Assembly (NCBI GenBank): GCA_026770705.1
Contig: JANJGN010000036.1
Span: 1,550,001-1,614,000, forward strand
From: Isurus oxyrinchus
Taxonomy: Eukaryota
Direction of reading: 5' to 3'
DNA: 64,000 nt
Positions 1 to 38,396 of this stretch are shown piece by piece (position 1 is the stretch's first letter; every line of letters begins with the position of its first letter). The position numbers and the translations under genes were made by a program. The notes below the pieces were generated by a model. It worked only from the letters and a program-made list of their open reading frames with translations. It did no database searches and had not been told where the DNA came from.

Positions 1-69
1 AAATTCAGAAAGCAAAACACTGAAGCGATGAGATATATGAGAATGGAGTAAGGGGTCAGAAATTATACA

Positions 70-328
70 AAGGTACATGATCAGAGAATAGAGACTCCAT
101 GTGCCGTTAACTTCCCCCGAAAATACACTTGTTAGATGGTTATATTCTGTCACTGTGTAAACCAGTTGCAGGTGCGCCCGGTTTAGACAAGGGGTCCGCC
201 CCCGCCCCCGCCCCTCCTCCTCCCCAGCACCGTCATCTAAGCCGTGCCATAGTGCACCATGTAGCTACTTCCAAGCGAGAGAATCTGAACCGCCGGAGAC
301 CGGGACAAAACTGCCTGAGATGCAATAA
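70..328 (-). pseudogene. Truncated V-exon paralog of the 8437-8099 exon
   Basis: Clear similarity to 8390-8450; reads IASQAVLSRSPAVQIL...LQLVYTV...YSLIM. Acceptor mutated (ctcac), in-frame TAG, G-rich disruption, no F strand. Confidence 0.75.
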
Positions 329-4375: not shown

Positions 4376-4420
4376 TTAGAGTGTGCGATCCTCCTTAAGC
4401 GCCAAGCGGGCATAAAATGT
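4376..4420 (-). CDS. Exon 6, terminal TFYARLALKEDRTL* with ITIM/ITSM-like tyrosine motif
   Basis: tttttctccacag| acceptor, phase 0, T-x-Y-x-x-L motif, TAA at 4378-4376. Confidence 0.78.
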   Translation of the reverse strand, partial: TFYARLALKEDRTL

Positions 4421-7400
4421 CTGTGGAGAAAAATAATTACAGAATCTATTAATATAGCAAACAACAACATCGTAGGGAAATGCATATATTTCACCGCAGT
4501 TCTACATTTCTTTAGTTCTGATGAAGAGTCATAAGGACTGCAAACGTTAACTATATTACTCACCGCAGATGCTGTCAGACCTGCTGAGGTTTTTCAGCTA
4601 TTTTTGTTTATGTTCCAGATTTCCAGCATCTATAATATTTTGCTTTATACATCATCATAGGGATAGAAGGACGCCAGCCAGCCCCTCCAATTTATTCAAT
4701 TAGATCATGGCTGGACTGTATCGTAACTCCCATCTACCCACCTTGGTTCCACAACGCTAAATCCCCTAATCCAACAGAAATCTGTCAATCCTAATTGTGT
4801 CATTCCCAGTTGAAGCCGCAGGCTCAGCAGCTTTTGAGGGGAGAGAGTTCCAGGTTTCCACTTGCCTTTGTGTGACTAGTGTTACTGACATCACCCTTGA
4901 ACAACCTGGCTCTAATTTTAAACCTGTGTGGCCTTCACGCCATCCCAGCCCAGTTTAGCCCAGCCCAGCACACCCCAATCCACCCCAAGTAGCTATCTGC
5001 CCCCACACCCAACCCCCAGCCACCCCCCACCCGCCCCCCCACGCCAACAGCAAAGCAAATAGTTTATCTCTACAGACACGGTCGTATCCTTTTATCATCT
5101 TACACCCCTCAATTAGATTAACCCTCAATCTTCCCCACGAGAAAGATTGAAGCCTAGTTTCTGCCATCCTACTGTACCCATGATGCAATGTTTTCCTGAC
5201 ACTTACAACAATAATGATGACTTTTAAACCATAGATTCAAATACAGTGAAATGCATCTACTTGAGTTGCAACACTTTCATTCTTTTACCTCTTCATTGTG
5301 TCGGTGTGCTCTTGAATCTGTCAGTTCCTGATCATTGTTCATGTTTCCTGGTAGAAAGTGAAATTTGAACTGAGCATGAGTAGTTACATTTCACACTGAA
5401 CCGGCTGAAAATGTCAATAACTGATTGATAAATGAATGTATTGAGAGCGCCGCGGAGTTACAGCGTCTCCCAACAATCATTACCTGTTTGTTGATTCCTA
5501 CATCTCTTTCTCCCGGCCACAAGTATCAGCCCCAGAAGGAGAAGTGCCGCTGAAGACAAACTCCCGAAAAGCGGAAAAATGCAGGTGGCAGGTAGCGGAG
5601 AATCTGCAAAAAAAAAAAAATCATTGAAAAGAAATCTTGTTAAATTAATTAAACAATTGAATGAAAGGACAACCCTGAATTTGTGATTTCACCTGAAAAC
5701 GGACGTATATTTTTCCATATTTCATTATCCTGAAATAAAGCAGTGATCTTATAGAGCAATGCTGATACAGGACAGAAGTGGGAAGAGAAAGAAAGAGGGA
5801 GAAGAGATAGACGGAGAAATTGGTAGCAAGAGACAACAAAGATCTTACAGAACCCTGTAAAATAGAATAGTGAGAGAGAGAGAAAGAGACGTAGATAGAG
5901 CACTGTTTATATGAGACAGAAATAGAGAGAGAGAAAAAGCAAGAGAGAGAGAGACGGAGCAACAATATTATGGAGCATTGATTCAAAAGTAGAAGCATAG
6001 AGAGGTAAGGAGGGATAAAGAGAGATAAAGGGAGATTGACAGAGAGAGATACTTAGAACACTATTTGAATAGCACAGACATTTTAAGCCGGAGAGGGATG
6101 AGCAGAGTGTGATCGAGAGAGCAGATCACTTATACAAAACTTTCAACTAGGTTAAAAAAAGAGAGAGAGATGTTGAGAGGGGGAGAGAGGTGAGATGGAA
6201 AAGGAGGGGAAAGGGCCTGAAGAGAGGGAAATTAGTGTAGAGAGGGAGAGTGGGAAGATGGGGAGAAAGGGGGAAATTAGTGTGAGAGAGTGAGAAAGGG
6301 AGGTATGGGGACAGAGGGAGAGAAGCTGGAGAAAAGGAAAATTGGGGAGAGAGAAGGAGAGGGGGAGAGGGGGAGAGAGTGACAGAGAGGGAGAGATGGT
6401 AGATAGGGGAGAAAGTGAGAGTTGGATAGATTGAGAGTTGGAGAGAGATGGGGGCGGAGAGGAGGGTGGAGAAGATAGGGAGAGATCGGACATAGGCAGA
6501 GAGGCACTGAGGGAGATTGTGAAAGGGGAGGATTGGGTGAGATGGGGAGAGAGGGGGAGAGAAAGAGGGAGATAAGGAGAGGGCGAGGCAGTGGAGAGAT
6601 GGTTGAGAAATGGAGAAATGGGTGGAGAGATGGATGGCGAGATAAATAGACGCATACACAGGGATGAAGAGAGCAAATAACGGTTTAACTGCATTGAAAA
6701 TGACAGCGAGAGAAAAACAGATAAAGGCAAATTGAGAGAGAGATTGAGAGTAATGGAGACAGAGAGAAAGAGTGATAGAGAAAAGTATGGAGACAAATCG
6801 AGAGATAGAAAGATAGATAAATGTCACAGATTTCTTTTAACGCACCATTCAACAAGGATAAAAATAAACAATATAAACAGCGAGAGAGTGAGATAGATAG
6901 AGGGATAAATCGATGTATCACTAGATAAAGACAGAGCGTGAGACAGGGAGAAATTGACAGACAAACAATTGGAGGGACTGGGAGAGACACGGAAAGAGAG
7001 CGATAGTTGTAGAGAGCGTTTCAGGGACAGAGAGAGTCAGACAAACAATGGAAACAGATATCTTACACTGCAGCAGGACACAAATGGATTGACTGATAGA
7101 GAGCGAGAGAGATGGGCAGGCAGATAAACAGACAGTGACACAGAAGGGGAAGATACCTTAAAGTTCATTGTTTAACTAAGGCAGAGTGAAATATTGTGAC
7201 GTTAAGTAGATGGATGAATAGATAATAGTGCACACACATGGTGAGACAGAATGGTGCACATCTTTCAATTTTACACATTGACAAGTCAGCCACTGGCAGG
7301 CAACTATGTCAATACGCCAAGCCAAATAAAACAACACCAGAACTAGAAGTAGGAGATAATTCGGCCCCTCAAAGTAACCCGCCATTCAATAAGACCATGG

Positions 7401-9057
7401 CTAATGGTGTAGATCAACTTTACATTCCCGCACTGTCCACGTCCCTTATTCCCTTAATGTACAAAAATCTATCTCAGTGACTGAGGACCCATAGTTCTGG
7501 CTTAGACAGAACAGATAGAGTTGAAATGTCATAAAGCAAAACTCTGAAAGATTGAGAGATCTGTGACAGGTCATTGATAAAATTTTGATCCATGAACACA
7601 CATGCAAAGATGGACAATTCTAAGTTACAAAATTGCAAAGCCTGCCAGCAGCATTAAATAGATATTTAAACTGTCACTGTTAAAAGATACCTCTCTGAGA
7701 TGAGACATTTGCACTGAGAAGATTTTCACTGGAGTTGATTTGAATGGCGCAAGTACAGAGAGCGCCGCTGCTCCAAGTTTCCGCCGAGAGGCTGATATAA
7801 CTCTTGATAGTGTATGTCCCGTCCGATTCAATTGTCCCGGAATCGGTCTGTCCCTCGGTATCCCCCGAGAAAACATTCCAGCGGACGGGAAAGGAATCGG
7901 GAGACAAGCCTCTGATGAAACACAACAACGGGACCCTTTCCAGCGAAGGGATCTCATCCTCCGGCGGGGTGAGGAGGAATATGGTCGGGGAGCCCTCTAA
8001 ATTTGGTAAATGAAACAGTTGTGCCATTAACAACTGAGACCAGAGACAGATGGTTGCTGTAGAAATGCCCAACGCGATGGAATAATGATGAAATTTACCT
8101 GTAACCACTAACTGGGAGCCATTTCCGAATATAAAAGTCTGGTTCTCGGAATTGCGGATTGCACAGTAATACATTCCAGAGTCATTTCTCCGGGTATCCG
8201 CAATGATCAGTGAATATTTACCCGCTTTTTCAGAAATCCCGCTGGAAAACCTCCCCTCTGCTGGGATGTCCTTATGCGCTGTGTAAACCAGCTTGCTGTC
8301 GCTTCGCTCCTGCTGTCTGTACCAGAAGATGAACCGAAATTTATAGCTCTCCGTGTAGCAGCTCAGTTTAGCGCGACTCCCCGCAGGGAGTGTCTGAACC
8401 GGCGGAGACTGGGACAAGACGGGCTGAGACACAATAACTGAGCAAGGGAGAAAAAATAAGCGTCACTTCAACTTACGATGCAGCCCGTCACCCCGCAACC
8501 TCAACCCCACTAGCCCGAAGCCAGCCTCCGGCGAGGACACCCTGATATGGAGGAGGAAGAATCATTTATTAAACATCATCTATATCGGAAAATGTCACAC
8601 CCGCATCGCGCACAATTAAAATCAGGCTGATTAAGTGAGTATTTGCACTGTTTTCACCCGGTTTTCCAAAGACACAGTATGAGTCCATTCACCAGTAAAT
8701 GTGTTTTAATCAGTGGGGTACGCACATGGGAGCTGTATGAAGTTATAATCTTAAAAGATCTTCTTCAAATCTAAAATTCCAAAAAAACTGTTTTCTCTCA
8801 TCCACTTTTCGCTTCTTCTTATTTTGCGTTGACTTTGTGCATTTTATTTTGTTCAAGAGATTATAACTTTCACTAATAATGTACCTGAAACGCTCTCCTT
8901 TCCTTAACCATTTTTCCCCTGATTACCGGCCTTCCTGCCAGTAGAAAGATTTTCTCCTTATTCGCTCTACACCAACCCTCCTCCACTCTATCTGAACATG
9001 TTAAGATATCTTACCCTGGAAGAGATGGGACAATGCACACACAGAGAGGAAGTTCAT
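4376..9057 (-). CDS. Intact non-rearranging VJ-C1-TM-cytoplasmic Ig superfamily receptor (antigen-receptor-like, PRARP/VJC1-type architecture), 6 exons, 303 aa
   Basis: Exons 9057-9015, 8437-8099, 7996-7691, 5603-5484, 5347-5289 and 4420-4376 all have GT/AG ends with compatible phases (1,1,1,1,0). They sum to 912 nt with no internal stop. Confidence 0.88.
4505..4648. mobile_element. Penelope-related terminal fragment with degenerate hammerhead-like core
   Basis: CTGATGAAGAGTCATAAGGACTGCAAACGTT; same family as 13670-13863, opposite orientation. Confidence 0.55.
5289..5347 (-). CDS. Exon 5, cytoplasmic GNMNNDQELTDSRAHRHNEE
   Basis: ttctaccag| acceptor, GAG|GTAAAA donor, phase 1 to 0, open frame. 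Confidence 0.75.
5484..5603 (-). CDS. Exon 4, connecting peptide with Cys, transmembrane segment and basic stop-transfer
   Basis: DSPLPATCIFPLFGSLSSAALLLLGLILVAGRKRCRNQQT; poly-T tract + gcag| acceptor, G|GTAATG donor, 120 nt. Confidence 0.88.
5760..7150. repeat. GA-rich low-complexity tract in the C1-TM intron
   Basis: Strongly purine-biased + strand; the S/L/P-rich ORFs here are artefacts. Confidence 0.9.
7691..7996 (-). CDS. Exon 3, C1-set Ig domain
   Basis: GSPTIFLLTPP...VPLLCFIRGLSP...VRW...DGTYTIKSYISL...W...LCTC; C1-set motifs; ttag| acceptor and G|GTATCT donor, 306 nt. Confidence 0.92.
8099..8437 (-). CDS. Exon 2, germline-joined VJ-type Ig V domain
   Basis: SQPVLSQSPP...KLSC...IFWYRQ...GRFS...YSLII...NDSGMYYC...FIFGNGSQLVVT. 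Canonical Cys/Trp/Cys plus J-like FGxG in one exon; no RSS; acceptor ctcag|, donor G|GTAAAT. Confidence 0.93.
9015..9057 (-). CDS. Exon 1, leader peptide MNFLSVCALSHLFQ
   Basis: ATG at 9057, hydrophobic stretch, phase-1 donor CAG G|GTAAGA; joins in frame to give ...LFQVIVSQPVLSQSP. Confidence 0.85.
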
Positions 9058-9230
9058 TGTCCGTGACTTCTGATGGTCAGAATCTGAACCCCGATCCGAA
9101 ACTCTCTGAGAACTCGCCCTCTGTCTCTCGGTGTGAAGGGGGTGTGTAATGTGCAGACTGAATAGTGTTCTGTGTTTATTAATAGATACACGAAAGGGGT
9201 TGGTAATTGGTGCCGAGGTAGACAACTCTC

Positions 9231-9282
9231 TGTGGTTTTCCTGTTTAGCGCAGGTCAAAGTGCTGTCACGTACTCACCACCT
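9231..9282. promoter_or_regulatory. Candidate promoter: adjacent RUNX (TGTGGTT) and ETS (TTCCTGT) sites plus E-box
   Basis: About 180 bp upstream of ATG 9057; tttcctgttta also occurs at 651-661 upstream of the V pseudogene. Motif match only. Confidence 0.4.
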
Positions 9283-9419
9283 GTTTTCCAAAGTACACCA
9301 GTTATGTACTCACATCAGTTAGATAACACTTGTTCTGCATGTTCTAGAAATATGATCTATATTCAGATACAGTTAATGTTTCACAGTGATGATATCTGAT
9401 CTGAGAGCTTATATATATT

Positions 9420-11190
9420 AGGAACGAATGAACCGACTGGGGCTCCTGTCTCCAAACGGTGTTGTGGGGGCTGGTGTGGAGAGATTGAGGGGTGACCTGA
9501 CCGAGGTATTTAAAATTACGAAATGGTTTATTTAGGCCGACGTAGGTAAGATAGCTCTAATTCTGCAGATTTCAAAAATATTGGTCATCAATCAATCCGA
9601 CCGGAGAATTCAAGAATTCTCATTGAGGTTTCGAGGAATGAAAGGTGATCTTATTGAAATATGTACGTTCCTGAGGGGCATAGATAAAAGGGCTACCAGG
9701 AGGATGTTTCCTGTTGTCTCCAAAACTTGGGATATAGTTAAAAATAGAGGTCTCCATTTAAAGCAGAAATTACGAGATTTATTTTCACCAAGTGGGTTGT
9801 TGGTCTGTGCAATAGTCTTCCCCAGAAAGTAGTCGCGATTGGGTCTTTGAATTTATTCAAGGCCCCGTGTTAGACAGATTTTTGTTAGGTCAGGGATTGA
9901 AGACCTATGGGCGGCAAACAGGAAAGTGTAGTTGAGACCACAACCAGGTCAGCCATTATTTTATTGAATGGTGAAGCAGGCTCGAAGGGCCCAGTGGCCT
10001 CATTCTGCTCCTCTGTTGCTTTCGTCCTCTGTAACAAGAGGTCGTTAATATGAGATAAACCGAGTCCGGAATTCAGGGGAAACCGCTCTACGCAGACCGT
10101 GGGTAGAACGTGGAACCCGTTTGCACAGGGGTTGGTCCAGGTTATTTTAGTGTTACAGTTAAGTGGCAAGCTGGATAAACAAACGCGGGGGAAATGAATA
10201 AAGGAAATGTTGTTGGGCTGAGATGAAGAGGAGGTGTGAGGAGGCTCATGCGGAGCACGAGAAATTGGGTCATATTGCCAGTTTCTGTGATGTAAATTCT
10301 ATCTAACTCTGTAAACTGCAAAATCAAGAGAGCTTAACAACAACTTCAAAGTAATAACTGTGCAGATAATTTTCCATTGAACTGCTGTAAATGCGCTTGG
10401 AGGGCAATGCAAAGTGAAACTTGTAATATTATTTGAAACTCGCTTCAACGGGACCTATCTATCAAATCATTGGTAATTAGAATACAAAATGAACTCAGAG
10501 CACTGAAATCATGATAATCCCCAATGGCGCTTTATATAATAGAACAAAGCAGTCCGCAAACCTATTCAATGTGACTTAACTGACAGGAAGACAGTCCACG
10601 GACATTTTAAGGAACAGAACTGAATTGAAAGAGATTCGTTCATTTAGATTCTCAATAAGTACAGTAAATGACCGTGTTTGATGCATTAGAATTCCAATCT
10701 ATATCTCTGCATAATTTGTGCATGTTGAATAAGATAATAGCAATTAAAATTAAAATCAATCCACATACATTTCATCCAATATTCATCCAGTCTCTGTGTT
10801 GACCAGAATGTCTCACGATTCTTGTAAACCTGTTTATAGAATAGATACTATTGATTATTATCACACGACACTCCGAATTCCTGGCGTTTACTTTCCAAAC
10901 CTGCGACCTCTGCAAACTTGAAGTGCAAGTGCAGCAGTTACATGGGAACACCACCCACTGCAAATTACTCTCCATGTCAATCATCACCTTGACTTGGAAA
11001 TATATCACAGGTCCTTCAGTATCACTGATTCAAAATCCTGGAACTTCCTCACTGAAAGCACGGTTGGTGTACCTACACCACAGGGACTCCAATGGTTCAG
11101 GAAGGCAGTTCACCACCATCTTCTCAAGTGACAATCGGTGATCGCTAATGCATTCTGGCCTTTCCAGCGACTCTGACATCTCGAGAATGA
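9420..11190 (+). mobile_element. Decayed LINE 3' fragments between the divergent genes
   Basis: RLRGDL / RGMKGDLIE motifs and CR1-like 3' UTR pieces. Confidence 0.65.
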
Positions 11191-13669
11191 ATCAATCTTT
11201 GACAACAATAGTTAGCATCCATCCATCCAAATTAGTAATCTTTGAGCCCCGCGCCCCCACACTCTGAGCGACATCCCAGTAAAGTTCTTTATAGACCTGT
11301 TGCCACTTGCCCGCTGTGACGCACAGACCGTGACCACAGTATGAAAAATGCAAGTGATATTCACCAGGACACCCACTCAAAATGGCGTCATACTTTCCAC
11401 AGCATAGCTCGTCATGGTTTCCACCGCATCTGAAAGGGGAGCTATTGACTGGAGCTGAGCTCAAGTCAGTCTGAGGCCACTCCACCTGCGGTAACAAACT
11501 GGTGAGAGCGAAAACAGGCAGAACACGCCGCGACAAGATGTCCAAGGATTATTTATCTCTGATGCTTATTTTCCAAATATTGCGGGTTTATGGTGAGTAA
11601 GAGGCTGGTGAGAATTTGAAACTAGACTTAGCCAGAATCCGTGTTTCCTAAGCTGAAAATGTAACCCAGGGACAAGGTGAAGGGGTTTGACCTGATCATG
11701 TGAGTTTATTTACTGGTTCCTCTTATAAAGCGAAGAAAATCAAATTGGAGTATTAATCTGACCAAGAATATTTAAAGACAATGATGTGACTGTTTTAAAA
11801 TAAGAGTGAAATGTTTCAAAGCGGCTGCTTCTTATCTCTAAATCGTGATAATGCAACAATACCCCCTCGAGTTGCAGAATCCGAGACCTCTCTGTCTCAG
11901 AACCCCATCATAATGACAGTTGAATTCGGAGAGATTGTGGAATTAACTTTTCAGTGCATTTACGAAGTGGAATCGGTGTATTTCTATTTCTGATACAAAC
12001 AGCGTATGGGTGGAGCCCCGAAAACAATCAAAAGCCAGTCCTGTCAGGGGGCTGATTGTAAGTTTATTTCCAAAAAATGCAGCATCACAAACGTGTTGAT
12101 TCTGGAAATTCGCAATGTCCAGATGAATGACTCGATTTCCTGCTGCTGTGCTCGTAGGGGTAGCTATGTACCTCTACAGAATGCAACAACACTATTAATT
12201 TTAGATAAGAGAGCATAAGAATTCAGATATTACACAGCATTAACATTTGGAGCAAATTAATCTCTCTCCAGACAGTTCCACCAAGAAACGGCTTTGCGGG
12301 TGCTTGCCCCGCCGGGTGAGCTGCAGCTGAGGGAAACCGTCCCCTTGGTGTGTTTGGTCAGTGGAGTTTCTTACCAGCAGGTTGCTATTTTCTGGAAAAT
12401 TTCAGGCCTGGTCACCGAGGGACCGAGAGATCCCGGCGCAAAGGAAGCGGACGGGACTTACAGCATCAGAAGTCACGTCATAGTGTCGAGGGAAACCTGG
12501 AAAACTTGCGGTTTCTGTACTTGTATTTTTCGACTGGCGTCTCTAGGGAAATATTAGACAAAGTACGACACGCTCTTCACCAAAGCAGCAGGGACAGGGA
12601 GAGGTGAGCTGGTGATCTGTTCAAACAATCAGTACAGGAATTCACTAGACTCAAAGAATCTGCAGTCTCCAGTCTCCGAATTAAACACCTCAACCAAATA
12701 AAAGATAACTATGGATAGAAAAAATATATATTTGTGAGTGTGTCAGAGTATGTGTGTGTGTGCGTGTGTGTTTATATGTTTGCGCGTGCGTTTTTCTGTG
12801 TATATAGAATTTATAGGTTATATATATGTATGTCTGTATACATTTATGTCTGTCTACCTCAAAGTAAAAAGCGCGTTCAAAGTTTTTGAAATAAATTAGT
12901 GATGTCCTTTGTCCGAGAGGGAGGCTTTGTCTTGTAAAATATTTCTCGGCTCGCCTTAAGTTCCTGTGTGACATTTTTGAATCATAGAGTAACACAGCAC
13001 ATAAAGAGGATATTCAATTAATCCCACCTTTTCCCAATCATCCTGTAACACGTTCCCGTTCATCATAATCCATTTAATAATCCGATTTCCCTCATGGAAG
13101 CTATTCCTTAATCTGCTTTCCCCATCCTTTCAGGCAGTGGATGAGGAATAGGTTTGAGATTAGTTCAAAATAGGATGAGATAATGAACAAAAGGCTGTGA
13201 AGAGATAAGATTGTTTTGAACGACAAACTATCTGAAGGGGCGTGACTCTCGCTCATTTGCCCGGTCTCCTTCTTCATTTCCTGGAATCTCCCTTATCAAT
13301 CTCTATTTTCCTGTTAAAATCCAGTTTATTATTAACATCAGTTGGTGATATCAGCAGTCGCAATTTTACATTAACCTCGTGTGATGACACGTCAGTGAAA
13401 TTAGGTTGGTAAGGAACTGATCGAGTTTCACACGCATCAGGCAGATCGCGCACATATATTAATCTCAGAATGTGGCAGAACAACTTGATATGGCCGCGAA
13501 AAAATCATAGCGAAACCTGGGCTTCATTAATAGCGCAAAAAATACAAGACAATTTCCTACATTATGAAGATCTGGTCAGACCCCAGCTGGAGTACTGTGC
13601 CCAATTCTGGGGGAAATATGTTGGGTTTTCTTTACCCAAAGAGCTGAAACAGACACGTTTAGTCGAATT

Positions 13670-13863
13670 AAAAACAAAAAAACTGCGGATGCTGGAAATT
13701 CAAAACAAAAACAGAATAACCTGGAAAAACTCAGCAGGTCTGGGAGCATCGGCGGAGAAGAAAAGAGTTGACGTTTCGAGTCCTCATGATCCTTCGACAG
13801 AACTCAGTTCTTCTCCGCCGATGCTGCCAGACCTGCTGTGCTTTTCCAGGTAATTCTGTTTAA
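13670..13863. mobile_element. Penelope-derived inverted-repeat insertion with 13-bp TSD
   Basis: TSD gtttagtcgaatt at 13657-13669 and 13864-13876; internal inverted repeat of about 50 bp. Confidence 0.85.
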
Positions 13864-14859
13864 GTTTAGTCGAATTGCCTACTTCTGTGTTGTTTTATTC
13901 TATTATTCCACAATTCACTTTCCAGGTAGACATCGGTATGATGCTTTAATTATAATTTTGGACCAATCCTGACAGTGTTGTCCGTCAATTGATCTCTATT
14001 CGAAAACATTGCTCCATTTATTTTATTCTGTGTGTCCACAAGCCGCGGCCTGTCGCACTGGCTATTTGAGACACAGACTATTAACTGGGTCACGTTTCCC
14101 ATGAGAGAATTCCAGGAAATAATGATTTGACCGAGCAGCAGTTTCTAATTGTTTTGTCTCTGCAAGATGCTGCATTCCGACCCTTAATGTTAGCAGAATG
14201 GCGGCGGCGATCGCAGTTCTACTCTTGATTCTCATTTTAATTGGGACACATAAAAGCGGCAGATCAGGTCATGATCAATGTTTATCAGGGACATTTTCAT
14301 AACTGGTTGTCCAATCTGATTCCCTTCTCGCAATTTTAAATTACTAATTACTGACTCTCATTTCTGGAGAACAAGACATGAGATCCCACAATGAAAAGTG
14401 AGTAACTGAACCATTTAGAAAGTTTAACCCGAACAACTTGTCTATATTTAAGACTCGGCGTAACCCAGTTCAACCTCAACACTGATTCCAACGATTCCAA
14501 CTGACATGTCCCATCATCTTTCAAGGTTGATTCTAAGACTGCTCGACAATTTTCCTCTCAAATATTTCCGGCAGCTGAACCAGGATTTACAGGACATAAC
14601 AATTGTTTGATATTTTTGTTCGAATCCAGTTTGAGCTTGAGAGGAAGAGAGACGGCAAAGCGATATGCAGAATGAATGACAAAAGGTCAATGGGACTGAA
14701 AGTTTTGTGCAGATTAAATGTTAAATTCTAGAAATTCTGAAGGTCAATAACTGCATCTCTCTCCATAAAGATATTCTGAAATCATTGGCCAGCCTGTTGG
14801 TCCCATAAAAAAGGCCAATGATTGGGTATTAATTGAGACTGCAGGAAAGTGGAGCTTGG

Positions 14860-15670
14860 CGTTCTACTGGGCTTTGCTTTGAGGGCCCGGGCATGTCCTG
14901 ATGTGCATTACAGACCTAGACATAGGTGTACAGGGTACAACCTTAGCGTTTGACACAAAACGTGGAAGTTTTCTGACCTGTGAGGAGGAGATTGCTAGAC
15001 TGCAAGCGGTCACAGACAGATTGGTGGAATGAGCTGACAGGTGGAAGATTAAATTAAATGCACAGAAGTGTGAAGTGATCAATTTGTTAGCAAGAATGAG
15101 GAGAGACAATAGAAAATAAAAGATACGACTCTAAAAGTGTTCCAGGAACAGCGTCATCTGCTTGTATATGTATTGAAATCATTGAAGGTGATAGAATAGG
15201 TTGACAGATGATTTAGCAAAGCATGAGGAGACTCAGACACTTGTTCGTGTGGACATAGAGTACAAAAGTTTAAAGTTATAATAAAGCTAATTAAAAGTTT
15301 GAGTTCGGCCTCAGCCAATGGATTGTGTCCCGTTCTGGTCACCACACTTTGGGAAGGATGTGACGGCTTTAGAGGAGATGCAGACTATATTGTTGAAAAT
15401 GTTTCCATGGCGGAGGGACTTCAGTTAAAAAGTTAAATTGGAGAAACTGCGGCTGTTTTCCTGGGAGAAGAGAAGGCTGAGAGGGGATTTGATGGACTTA
15501 TTCAACATTAAGAGGGGTCAGGAGACAGTGGATAGGGAGAAATTGTTGCTATTGGAGAAAGGGTCCCGAATGAGGATATTGGTTAATTGTGAGAAGATAG
15601 AAAGAATAAATCATTTCTAGGGCTACAGGGAAATTGCAGGGATGGCAAGCGGGTGGACTATGTGATTTCC
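14860..15670 (+). mobile_element. Decayed CR1 LINE fragment
   Basis: LEKLRLFSWEKRRLRGDL and degenerate RT motifs. Confidence 0.75.
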
Positions 15671-16719
15671 TCCTTCAGAGACCGACACAAGAAGCTGCAA
15701 TAATTGTTTCTGTGATATATCCATTTGATGAGTCTAACATTGGCAACATTGTGTCAGGGGTACATTTAGGCATGGCCACTGCGGCGTTGGCGAGGCACGG
15801 GTAGTTAGTTTGTGTACATTGTCCATGTCCATCCATTGTCATGTTGTGGAAGTAATGCAATATTTGGGAAGCATTGGCTTATTGGGGTATTTGTCATTCA
15901 ATGTGCCTCTGATTGATTTTCGCTTATCTACACAGGAATAAAACATCAATTCATAGCTAAACCATTAATACACAGGTGGCCACTGTCAGAAAGGGGCGAA
16001 GCGACACATCAGGGTGCAAAAGAGGTGAATGTATTGAGCTTTCGTAATAGTATACAGTCACTTCATTCTTGGGGCAAGGTGCACAATGCTGGATATTTCA
16101 TGCAGTTAACAGCGATCATGTCACAATCTATTTGTATCAACTCCCACTCAGCCCCCAAACTGAAATCAGAACATATCCTCCAGCCTCTCTGCCGATTGAT
16201 TATTCAAATGATAGGATAATATTCCATGCAGAATATCTCCGGCAGTCTCCAATTCAGATTCCCAACAGTTTCTAGTACAGATTTCCAGCTTTCTGCTTTT
16301 TAAACAAAAATCTATTTAACTTTGCAATCATTTACAGAATTAGAGAACAACACGAGAGGGAAGTGGCCAGTGATGCTGGAAACTTGTGATGGTTCCATTT
16401 TACTTTTGTACCGTGTTTTGGATTGATATTAGTTTTAAACTAACATGTCTATGCCATAGGGTCAGTGCCCTGTTTCGGCAGAACTGTTGACTGTGAAGTT
16501 ATGTTTCCCAAAGCTCTTTATCACGGAGGGAATCTCTCGCCTCATATCTGGGCATGATGTGGACAAATTGATGTTAATCTATTGCCAGAATAACCCAATT
16601 ATCATTGCATCATAGAAAAACGAGGATGGTGGAATGCATTCCAGCTGGGATTTGGTATTATTCCTTCCAGATATTCGCATTTTCCTAATTCTGTGTTTGC
16701 ACAGTGTTGCAACAAGGCA

Positions 16720-36011: not shown

Positions 36012-36337
36012 GTGTCCTGGTGGTTCTCGTCCTCAATTAGTCCACAATTTCCGACTGAGTCTCCGTTGGTCAGACCGCCCGATTACAGTGCGAGATGCAG
36101 AACGGGAATGTGGGAAGCTCCACTGTGCGCTGGTACCGGCAGCGAACCGGAGTTGCTCCAGTCTGGGTGTTACAGCACAAGACAGATGGGAGCGTCTCTC
36201 GAGGCACCGGCTTCACTGACCGCTTCGAACCTTCGAGAGACACCTCCAGGAACAATTTCATTCTGACCATTGGAAGCCTGGAGTCCGGTGACTCCGCCGT
36301 CTATTACTGTTCGGTCTGGGATAGCTCAGCTGGGGAG
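36012..36337 (+). pseudogene. IgL V segment with two in-frame stops
   Basis: TAG at 36038-36040 and TGA at 36056-36058 in FR1; remainder open to DSAVYYCSVWDSS. Confidence 0.92.
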
Positions 36338-36365
36338 CACAGTGAGACAGAGCCATACAAAAACT
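36338..36365 (+). other. 12-spacer recombination signal sequence
   Basis: CACAGTG - 12 nt - ACAAAAACT directly after V. Confidence 0.95.
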
Positions 36366-36723: not shown

Positions 36724-36760
36724 CAGATATTCGGAGGTGGGACTGCCTTGAATTTTCGGA
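36724..36760 (+). pseudogene. IgL J segment QIFGGGTALNFR with dead donor
   Basis: FGxG motif; followed by ATAAGT instead of GTAAGT. Confidence 0.88.
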
Positions 36761-38067: not shown

Positions 38068-38396
38068 GTACTGAGGATCGAAGGCCATCCGTCATTCTTC
38101 TTCCTCCTTCCTCGCAAGAGATAGATTCAGGCTCGGCCACTCTGTCCTGCCTGGTGAGTGACTTTAAACCGGGTTTCGTGCGGGTCCTCTGGAGTGTGGA
38201 TGGCAAAGAGACAGACAGCGGAGTGAGAACAAGCGTCGTGTCCGCGGATAGCGATCAAACCTACAGCCTGAGCAGTTACCTGACAGTCCCAGCCACTGAC
38301 TGGAAGAAGGGCTCCAGATATTCCTGCAGTGTCAACCACGGCTCCCTGAACTCACCCCTTCTCAACACCATCAGCTTCAGCGATTGCTCACTCTGA
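38068..38396 (+). CDS. IgL constant exon (frame intact) within the pseudogene cluster
   Basis: cacag| acceptor; TEDRRPSVILLPPSSQEIDSGSATLSCLVS...YSCSVNHGSL...SDCSL*; AATAAA at 38649 and 38703. Confidence 0.92.

Follow-up and report, generated by a model that had tools for sequence, protein, structure and literature searches.

What does a pair of divergent receptor genes encode when one of them is dead? The question is raised by a 64,000-nucleotide stretch of the shark Isurus oxyrinchus (contig JANJGN010000036.1, positions 1,550,001 to 1,614,000; hereafter, the window), where reading of both strands identifies an open gene on the minus strand (gene A, type A) and, head-to-head with it, a broken gene on the plus strand (gene B, type B). 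Both have the layout of a variable (V) domain, a C1-set constant domain and a transmembrane (TM) segment. An earlier note on this DNA proposed an ancient, alpha/beta-like gene pair with shared regulation, encoding a disulfide-linked dimer. Our analysis favors, with a probability of roughly 55%, A and B chains that pair into disulfide-linked surface receptors shaped like an antibody antigen-binding fragment (Fab) or a T-cell receptor (TCR), the chains mixing across a large gene array rather than within a cassette.

Genome searches yielded 186 anchors and 200 surrounding stretches, in which 182 loci were modelled, with three added later and one duplicate anchor dropped. The searches of this genome placed all close relatives on one contig, at about 0.58–4.11 Mb, with at least 185 loci in 3.5 Mb; this number is a lower bound, as each search scored no more than 150 candidates and the gaps left unfetched contain further remnants. 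The 185 modelled loci comprise 55 of class A1, 13 of A2, 38 of the wholly decayed class A3, and 79 of type B. The reading frame is intact from the leader to the TM segment in 35 A1, ten A2, no A3, and 25 B copies (22 out of 77, plus one later locus and two copies of an arginine-containing subtype recovered with a better template); one further B copy is frameshifted just past its TM, and all eight exons are intact in 17 copies. Intact genes of the partner type, at least 25 out of 79 B, are thus present in the same array, and others occur in further sharks and rays; the earlier note had surmised an intact partner in a sister cassette. A large part of the array is made up of recent segmental copies, and at <97% identity 20 A1, four A2, and 15 B genes of the 182-locus set are distinct.

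The two chain types share a fold plan and differ in the V domain. Pfam V-set and C1-set domains are above cut-off in both intact A and intact B, and A–B identity is 39% in C1 and 29% in V, in line with the shared C1 signature and very different V described before. The J-like FGxG motif is present in 45 out of 45 intact A and in none of 22 intact B, being kept in some reptile B-like proteins, while a C-x4-C loop (CQGADC in the window) is found in all 22 intact B; hence the loop and the lack of FGxG, both reported for the broken gene B, are family traits and not decay. The cysteine just before the TM recurs as well: it is present in 35/35 A1, 10/10 A2, and 22/22 B, that is, in all 67 intact copies scored.

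Glutamine occupies the V–V contact position in 33/35 A1, 10/10 A2, and 22/22 B. Six residues past it, A chains have Met, Leu, or Ile (33/35 A1, 10/10 A2), whereas B chains have Pro (20/22, and 31/34 in other cartilaginous fish); in a solved antibody the same column holds Leu in the heavy chain and Pro in the light chain. This column plays a role in V–V packing. Given the pre-TM cysteine and the heavy/light-like interface residue, an A/B heterodimer is plausible from the sequence; its A V domain would correspond to a heavy or beta chain, its B V domain to a light or alpha chain, and the stalk cysteines would form the inter-chain bond. Searches of the PDB by sequence and by fold returned antibody chains only, the nearest solved folds being Fab chains, and the ESM Atlas returned unnamed V-C1 clusters, a shark B having its top two in common with a turtle B-like protein.

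Variable loops resembling the first and third complementarity-determining regions (CDRs) may bind the ligand. The ratio of the nonsynonymous rate (dN) in CDR1 and CDR3 to the V-wide synonymous rate (dS) is 1.80 (1.35–2.33) in 20 distinct A1 and 1.75 (1.43–2.13) in 15 distinct B, against framework ratios of 0.53 and 0.52, respectively, under the same counting. With the loops' own dS as the denominator, the pooled B value is 1.02 (0.59–1.76), and dead B copies, as counted here, give a ratio near 2; therefore, faster change of the loops is evident, but positive selection is not established.

Both chains carry signalling motifs. The TxYxxL tail is present in 29 out of 31 fully intact A1 and four out of ten A2, and PxYxx[LMV] in 12 out of 12 fully intact B; having Pro at –2, the latter is not a canonical immunoreceptor tyrosine-based inhibition motif (ITIM). 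These tail tyrosine motifs would transmit inhibitory signals. The tail tyrosine is lost in six out of ten open-frame A2 (e.g., 2048636, 2456428) and two out of 31 A1 (3908217, 3972439), and such A copies are possibly signal-neutral chains.

Twenty out of 77 B copies scored, that of the window included, have an NxxR motif at the start of the TM, and beside them stand copies with an uncharged TM and a tyrosine tail. The window copy reads N-V-S-R with no tyrosine exon after it, and four annotated proteins of other sharks combine NxxR with a tyrosine-free tail. According to PMC2413239, FcR-gamma is bound by the NxxR TMs of Xenopus XFL and of mammalian leukocyte receptor complex (LRC) receptors. 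Gene B belongs to an arginine-TM subtype, which the earlier note did not recognize and which by analogy is likely activating, and B chains with NxxR and no tyrosine tail would signal via an adaptor of the FcR-gamma type. The receptors treated in that source (LILRA2, NKp46, GPVI, OSCAR, Fc-alpha-R, and XFL TM1) resemble the shark genes in having NxxR at the TM start next to tyrosine-tail forms in a birth-and-death array, but differ in being single chains with C2/I-type ectodomains. As a separate observation, some B genes face another B at 19–35 kb (e.g., 1274660/1306774, 2201783/2220816), often one inhibitory and one of the Arg type.

The head-to-head arrangement is not peculiar to the window, where the start codons are 2481 bp apart, close to the 2.5 kb given earlier. 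A modelled B within 8 kb is faced by 31 out of 55 A1, with no instance of other orientations, compared with a mean of 6.7 and a maximum of 15 in 2000 draws of a simple null; 14 further A1 face B fragments, B remnants were found in all five additional upstream gaps fetched, and the distance between start codons is 2309–2849 bp in 30 out of 31 measured pairs. This excess and the narrow range of spacing mark the cassette as a genuine, recurring unit, and the pair noticed in the window is one instance of it. These data could also be read as evidence that each cassette encodes a dedicated A/B heterodimer driven by a shared bidirectional promoter, as the earlier note implied. Both genes are, however, intact in only four out of 31 cassettes (A only in 19, B only in two, neither in six), and intactness of A and B is uncoupled (Fisher p = 0.63 by cassette, p = 1.0 by 17 lineages). 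No facing A exists for 18 out of 25 intact B, nor any facing partner for 13 out of 13 A2. Arg-type B copies facing an A are broken in 12 out of 12 cases, while among the eight stand-alone copies two are intact and another one nearly so.

Two further results bear on regulation and function of the pair. In A genes standing beside a long-dead B, non-loop changes comprise 46 replacements and 30 silent ones, versus 102 and 20 in dead controls (p = 4e-4, two lineages); as the B lesions in these two lineages are common to the copies, they are older than the copies. A genes are under purifying selection next to dead B. Besides, a search for a bidirectional-promoter block in 16 spacers yielded none above background, conservation being flat at 0.70–0.89 with no peak, and 12 out of 15 unpaired intact B have retained only the B-proximal 0.6–0.8 kb of the spacer. 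Together with the intact unpaired genes, this indicates that A works without its neighbor, leaving shared regulation unsupported. The strict cassette model is thus largely refuted in this genome and, as a general account, improbable; the cassette is likely an old duplication unit, not a present-day requirement. In view of the few doubly intact cassettes, the unfaced intact B, and selection on A beside dead B, the heterodimer stays plausible, but would probably form in trans.

The same observations fit a different scheme, where A and B act independently of each other as paired receptors, in the form of homodimers or monomers, and the head-to-head layout is only a relic of duplication. Uncoupled decay and intact genes with no facing partner are expected there, each chain has its own signalling motif, and co-phylogeny of A and B across the paired cassettes is weak (Mantel r = 0.2, p = 0.11, 17 lineages); moreover, UrIg2, a non-rearranging VJ-C1 protein of sharks, is a homodimer according to passages of PMC12227049. 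Two facts argue for the heterodimer instead: the complementarity of the interface position, Met/Leu in A against Pro in B, has been kept in both lineages in sharks, in rays, and partly in tetrapods, and the two types stay linked in other species. On balance, we consider independent receptors less likely, though homodimers are a serious alternative.

Both types are annotated in many sharks and rays, under automatic immunoglobulin (Ig) or TCR-like names. Linkage of the gene types across relatives, which the earlier note had proposed to score, was observed in nine out of ten cartilaginous species with contig data, with an equal-sized source sequence as the proxy and Chiloscyllium plagiosum as the exception. 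A profile search of 1.84 billion representative sequences detected V-C1-TM proteins of about 300 amino acids with tyrosine tails, and non-rearranged bony-vertebrate counterparts outranked Ig and TCR in it. The 30 proteins looked up come from chimaera, rays, sturgeon, paddlefish, bichir, eel, lungfish, coelacanth, caecilian, frogs, turtles, crocodilians, and a lizard; in the caecilian, A and B types reside on one sequence. In a tree of 39 rows (20 out of 59 having been dropped), rooted with one long Ig light-chain outgroup, shark A grouped with the A-like proteins of lungfish and tetrapods (85/78), and the bony B-like proteins formed a group with shark B (89/82), a third bony group remaining unresolved; a clade uniting shark A and shark B was weakly rejected (approximately unbiased [AU] test, p = 0.042). 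Judging by this moderately supported topology, the A/B split probably predates the split of sharks and bony fish, which agrees with the antiquity ascribed to the pair before.

Transcript evidence comes from four runs of a related organism that are guessed to be RNA; among the runs on record as RNA, none contains the stretch of the window. The leader–V junction of gene A (8437/9015) is spanned by contigs in two out of four runs, from two studies, and its V–C1 junction in one out of four. Junctions of the B-type TM and tail are clear in one out of four runs, with joined forms in a second. Spliced A-type and B-type contigs co-occur in runs X2 and X5, both bulk samples, while run X16 does not cover the B exons and run X15 covers the C1 exon only, with no joints.

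Several points weigh against A/B heterodimers. As the above runs are guessed to be RNA, stem from a related organism, and match mostly at <90%, they do not show expression of the window gene. All of the uncoupled-decay data would be just as compatible with homodimers. The interface Pro is present in only four out of nine parsed bony B-like proteins. The V and C1 domains of B are sandwiches in a single-chain model, which also shows a TM helix and has no assigned C′ or C″ strands, and, given the lack of the FGxG bulge in 22 out of 22 B, V–V packing may differ from that in an antibody variable fragment (Fv). One intact Arg-type B has no stalk cysteine, and mixed signals would result if an A chain bearing a tyrosine motif were combined with an Arg-type B. 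Finally, support in the tree is moderate and its single outgroup is long.

Pairing of A with B in trans also invites a broader, and more doubtful, suggestion of a TCR-shaped two-chain system as old as jawed vertebrates and preceding RAG, retained and multiplied in sharks, in which about 24 distinct intact A and at least 15 distinct B would combine into a germline set of several hundred V–V binding sites, the B chain setting an inhibitory or an FcR-gamma-activating output. According to PMC12227049, the search for extant relatives of the gene invaded by RAG has been directed at single-exon VJ-C1 genes. A two-type VJ-C1 family common to sharks and bony vertebrates offers cloneable intact genes for tests of alpha/beta-like pairing without rearrangement.

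The closest known system is presumably that of chicken PRARP1/2 (Fu et al. 2019, PMID 30770416) and the Xenopus VJC1 genes (Ohta et al. 2019, PMID 31492741), orthology being unproven. Chicken PRARP1 and PRARP2 are two non-rearranging genes of the Ig superfamily (IgSF), a resemblance to which the earlier note did not point. Reportedly, the PRARP/VJC1 genes have a single-exon VJ, V-C1 outside birds, and a tail with an ITIM or an immunoreceptor tyrosine-based switch motif (ITSM), form disulfide-linked homo- or heterodimers, and have orthologues in bony fish, amphibians, and reptiles. With these systems the shark genes share a pair of non-rearranging genes, the single-exon VJ, the V-C1-TM layout, the ITIM/ITSM-like tail, and the species range of the relatives found here. 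They differ in that FGxG is confined to A chains, and in comprising about 185 loci versus two, with the NxxR subtype and the C-x4-C loop in B. Location differs as well: PRARP is named among the VJ genes of the major histocompatibility complex (MHC) in a passage of PMC10751288, whereas 33 out of 33 MHC-I matches here fall on contigs C21 or C16 and none on the array contig. Among the 30 proteins looked up, none is named PRARP and none is from a bird. Since two PRARP features are absent and orthology is unproven, we call the genes PRARP-like and do not assign them to that family. The literature searched, to which the chicken PRARP and VJC1 papers did not belong, contained no description of the shark array.

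UrIg and UrIg2 are similar in being elasmobranch genes with a single-exon VJ and C1 domains near Ig genes; the features given for them in passages of PMC12227049 are several C domains, location in the MHC or the Ig heavy-chain (IgH)/TCR complex, and homodimers. The genes described here carry a single C1, come in two chain types, are equipped with signalling tails, and have counterparts among bony vertebrates. UrIg identity was rejected on the basis of the single C1 and the MHC-I genes being on other contigs.

The resemblance to TCR alpha/beta and to the Ig Fab extends to the V-C1 ectodomain, the stalk cysteine, FGxG in A, the heavy/light-like asymmetry of the interface, and the nearest folds. 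The genes nevertheless have neither a V/J split nor a recombination signal sequence (RSS), bear tyrosine tails of their own and, differing in this from TCR, have an uncharged TM in A and in inhibitory B; on these grounds, the identity of a rearranging TCR or Ig gene was rejected. A canonical RSS occurs just once in the window, at 36338, as part of an Ig light-chain (IgL) V. One could still suppose that the genes are TCR or IgL genes joined in the germ line by RAG activity, as in some shark Ig clusters, given the rearranging IgL miniclusters within the array and the Fab chains as nearest folds. This origin is very improbable: neither gene A nor gene B has an RSS, V identity to the neighboring IgL V is only 22–25%, the TM with its tyrosine tail is unlike that of Ig or TCR, non-rearranged bony counterparts score above Ig and TCR, and the best genome matches are all on one contig. 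With about 185 loci, inhibitory and likely activating forms, and an admixture of rearranging IgL miniclusters, the expansion points to an overlooked array of receptors resembling those of natural killer (NK) cells in cartilaginous fish.

Turning to the window itself (Table 1), gene A has an open frame of 303 amino acids in six exons, encoding V-C1-TM, with AG/GT at every splice site. The exon plan, earlier described as the same in both genes, agrees from the leader to the TM but not in the tails, where type A has two exons and type B four. Likewise, the lengths of the short V–C1 introns, 67 and 102 nt, are correct, but 67 nt is peculiar to gene B and its twin; where this intron was measured in other B, it is mostly 81–98 nt long, and in A2 456–474 nt. 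The five lesions listed for gene B were all found, namely, TGA at 11991, the donor GT>AT at 12205, the loss of 1 nt near 12286, TAG at 12555, and AA instead of the TM acceptor at 14164–14165. In addition, the acceptor of tail exon 1 is dead, the donor of tail exon 2 is lost, and tail exon 3 is 49 nt long instead of 50; the last, tyrosine exon was not found within 8.6 kb downstream of the TM. A twin cassette 94 kb upstream (contig 1456522–1476521; L055, L056), about 99% identical, combines an intact A with the same dead B.

Table 1. Features of the window, with positions counted from its first nucleotide.
Feature	Position	Strand	Basis
Gene A, leader exon, ATG at 9057	9015..9057	-	exon model
Gene A, single-exon VJ domain, FGNG J-like motif, without RSS	8099..8437	-	exon model, Pfam
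Gene A, C1-set exon (VPLLC...CTC)	7691..7996	-	exon model, Pfam
Gene A, exon of stalk Cys and uncharged TM	5484..5603	-	exon model
Gene A, cytoplasmic exon 1	5289..5347	-	agrees with RefSeq models of shark homologues
Gene A, last exon, TxYxxL tyrosine motif and stop	4376..4420	-	exon model
Spacer between divergent start codons, conservation even among cassettes, no special block	9058..11537	.	comparison of spacers
Gene B (pseudogene), leader exon	11538..11592	+	exon model
Gene B, V exon, C-x4-C loop, no FGxG, TGA at 11991, dead donor 12205	11878..12204	+	
Gene B, C1 exon, frameshift near 12286, TAG at 12555	12272..12603	+	
Gene B, TM exon, Arg (NxxR) subtype, stalk Cys, dead acceptor	14166..14267	+	
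Gene B, tail exon 1, dead acceptor	14367..14397	+	
Gene B, decayed tail exon 2 (3′ boundary approximate)	14630..14686	+	
Gene B, tail exon 3, 49 nt versus expected 50	15976..16024	+	
IgL minicluster, V	~36012-36337	+	
IgL minicluster, RSS	36338-36365	+	
IgL minicluster, J	~36725-36760	+	
IgL minicluster, C	~38075-38395	+	

In gene B, the first canonical V cysteine is replaced by Phe. This cysteine is also absent from six out of 22 open-frame B (734618, 1093849, 673596, 2201783, 3875421, 3939362), two of which have neither of the canonical disulfide cysteines and keep the C-x4-C loop.

At its left edge, the window contains a decayed V remnant of the A3 type (55–326, minus strand). Between 1.76 and 4.0 Mb of the contig, a block of several hundred kb recurs as three to four near-identical segmental copies; some of these copies may be assembly haplotypes and not true duplicates. 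A rearranging-type IgL V-J-C minicluster occupies 35.7–38.4 kb of the window on the plus strand; its V has two in-frame stops, and its J-side RSS looks decayed. Eleven close copies of this V lie inside the receptor array, with V, J, and C confirmed in four out of four fetched, two of them having open V frames. More distant IgL-like V and C pieces, with 70–75% DNA identity, occur in the array at 2261588–2261932, 3184276–3184620, and 1058546–1058875.

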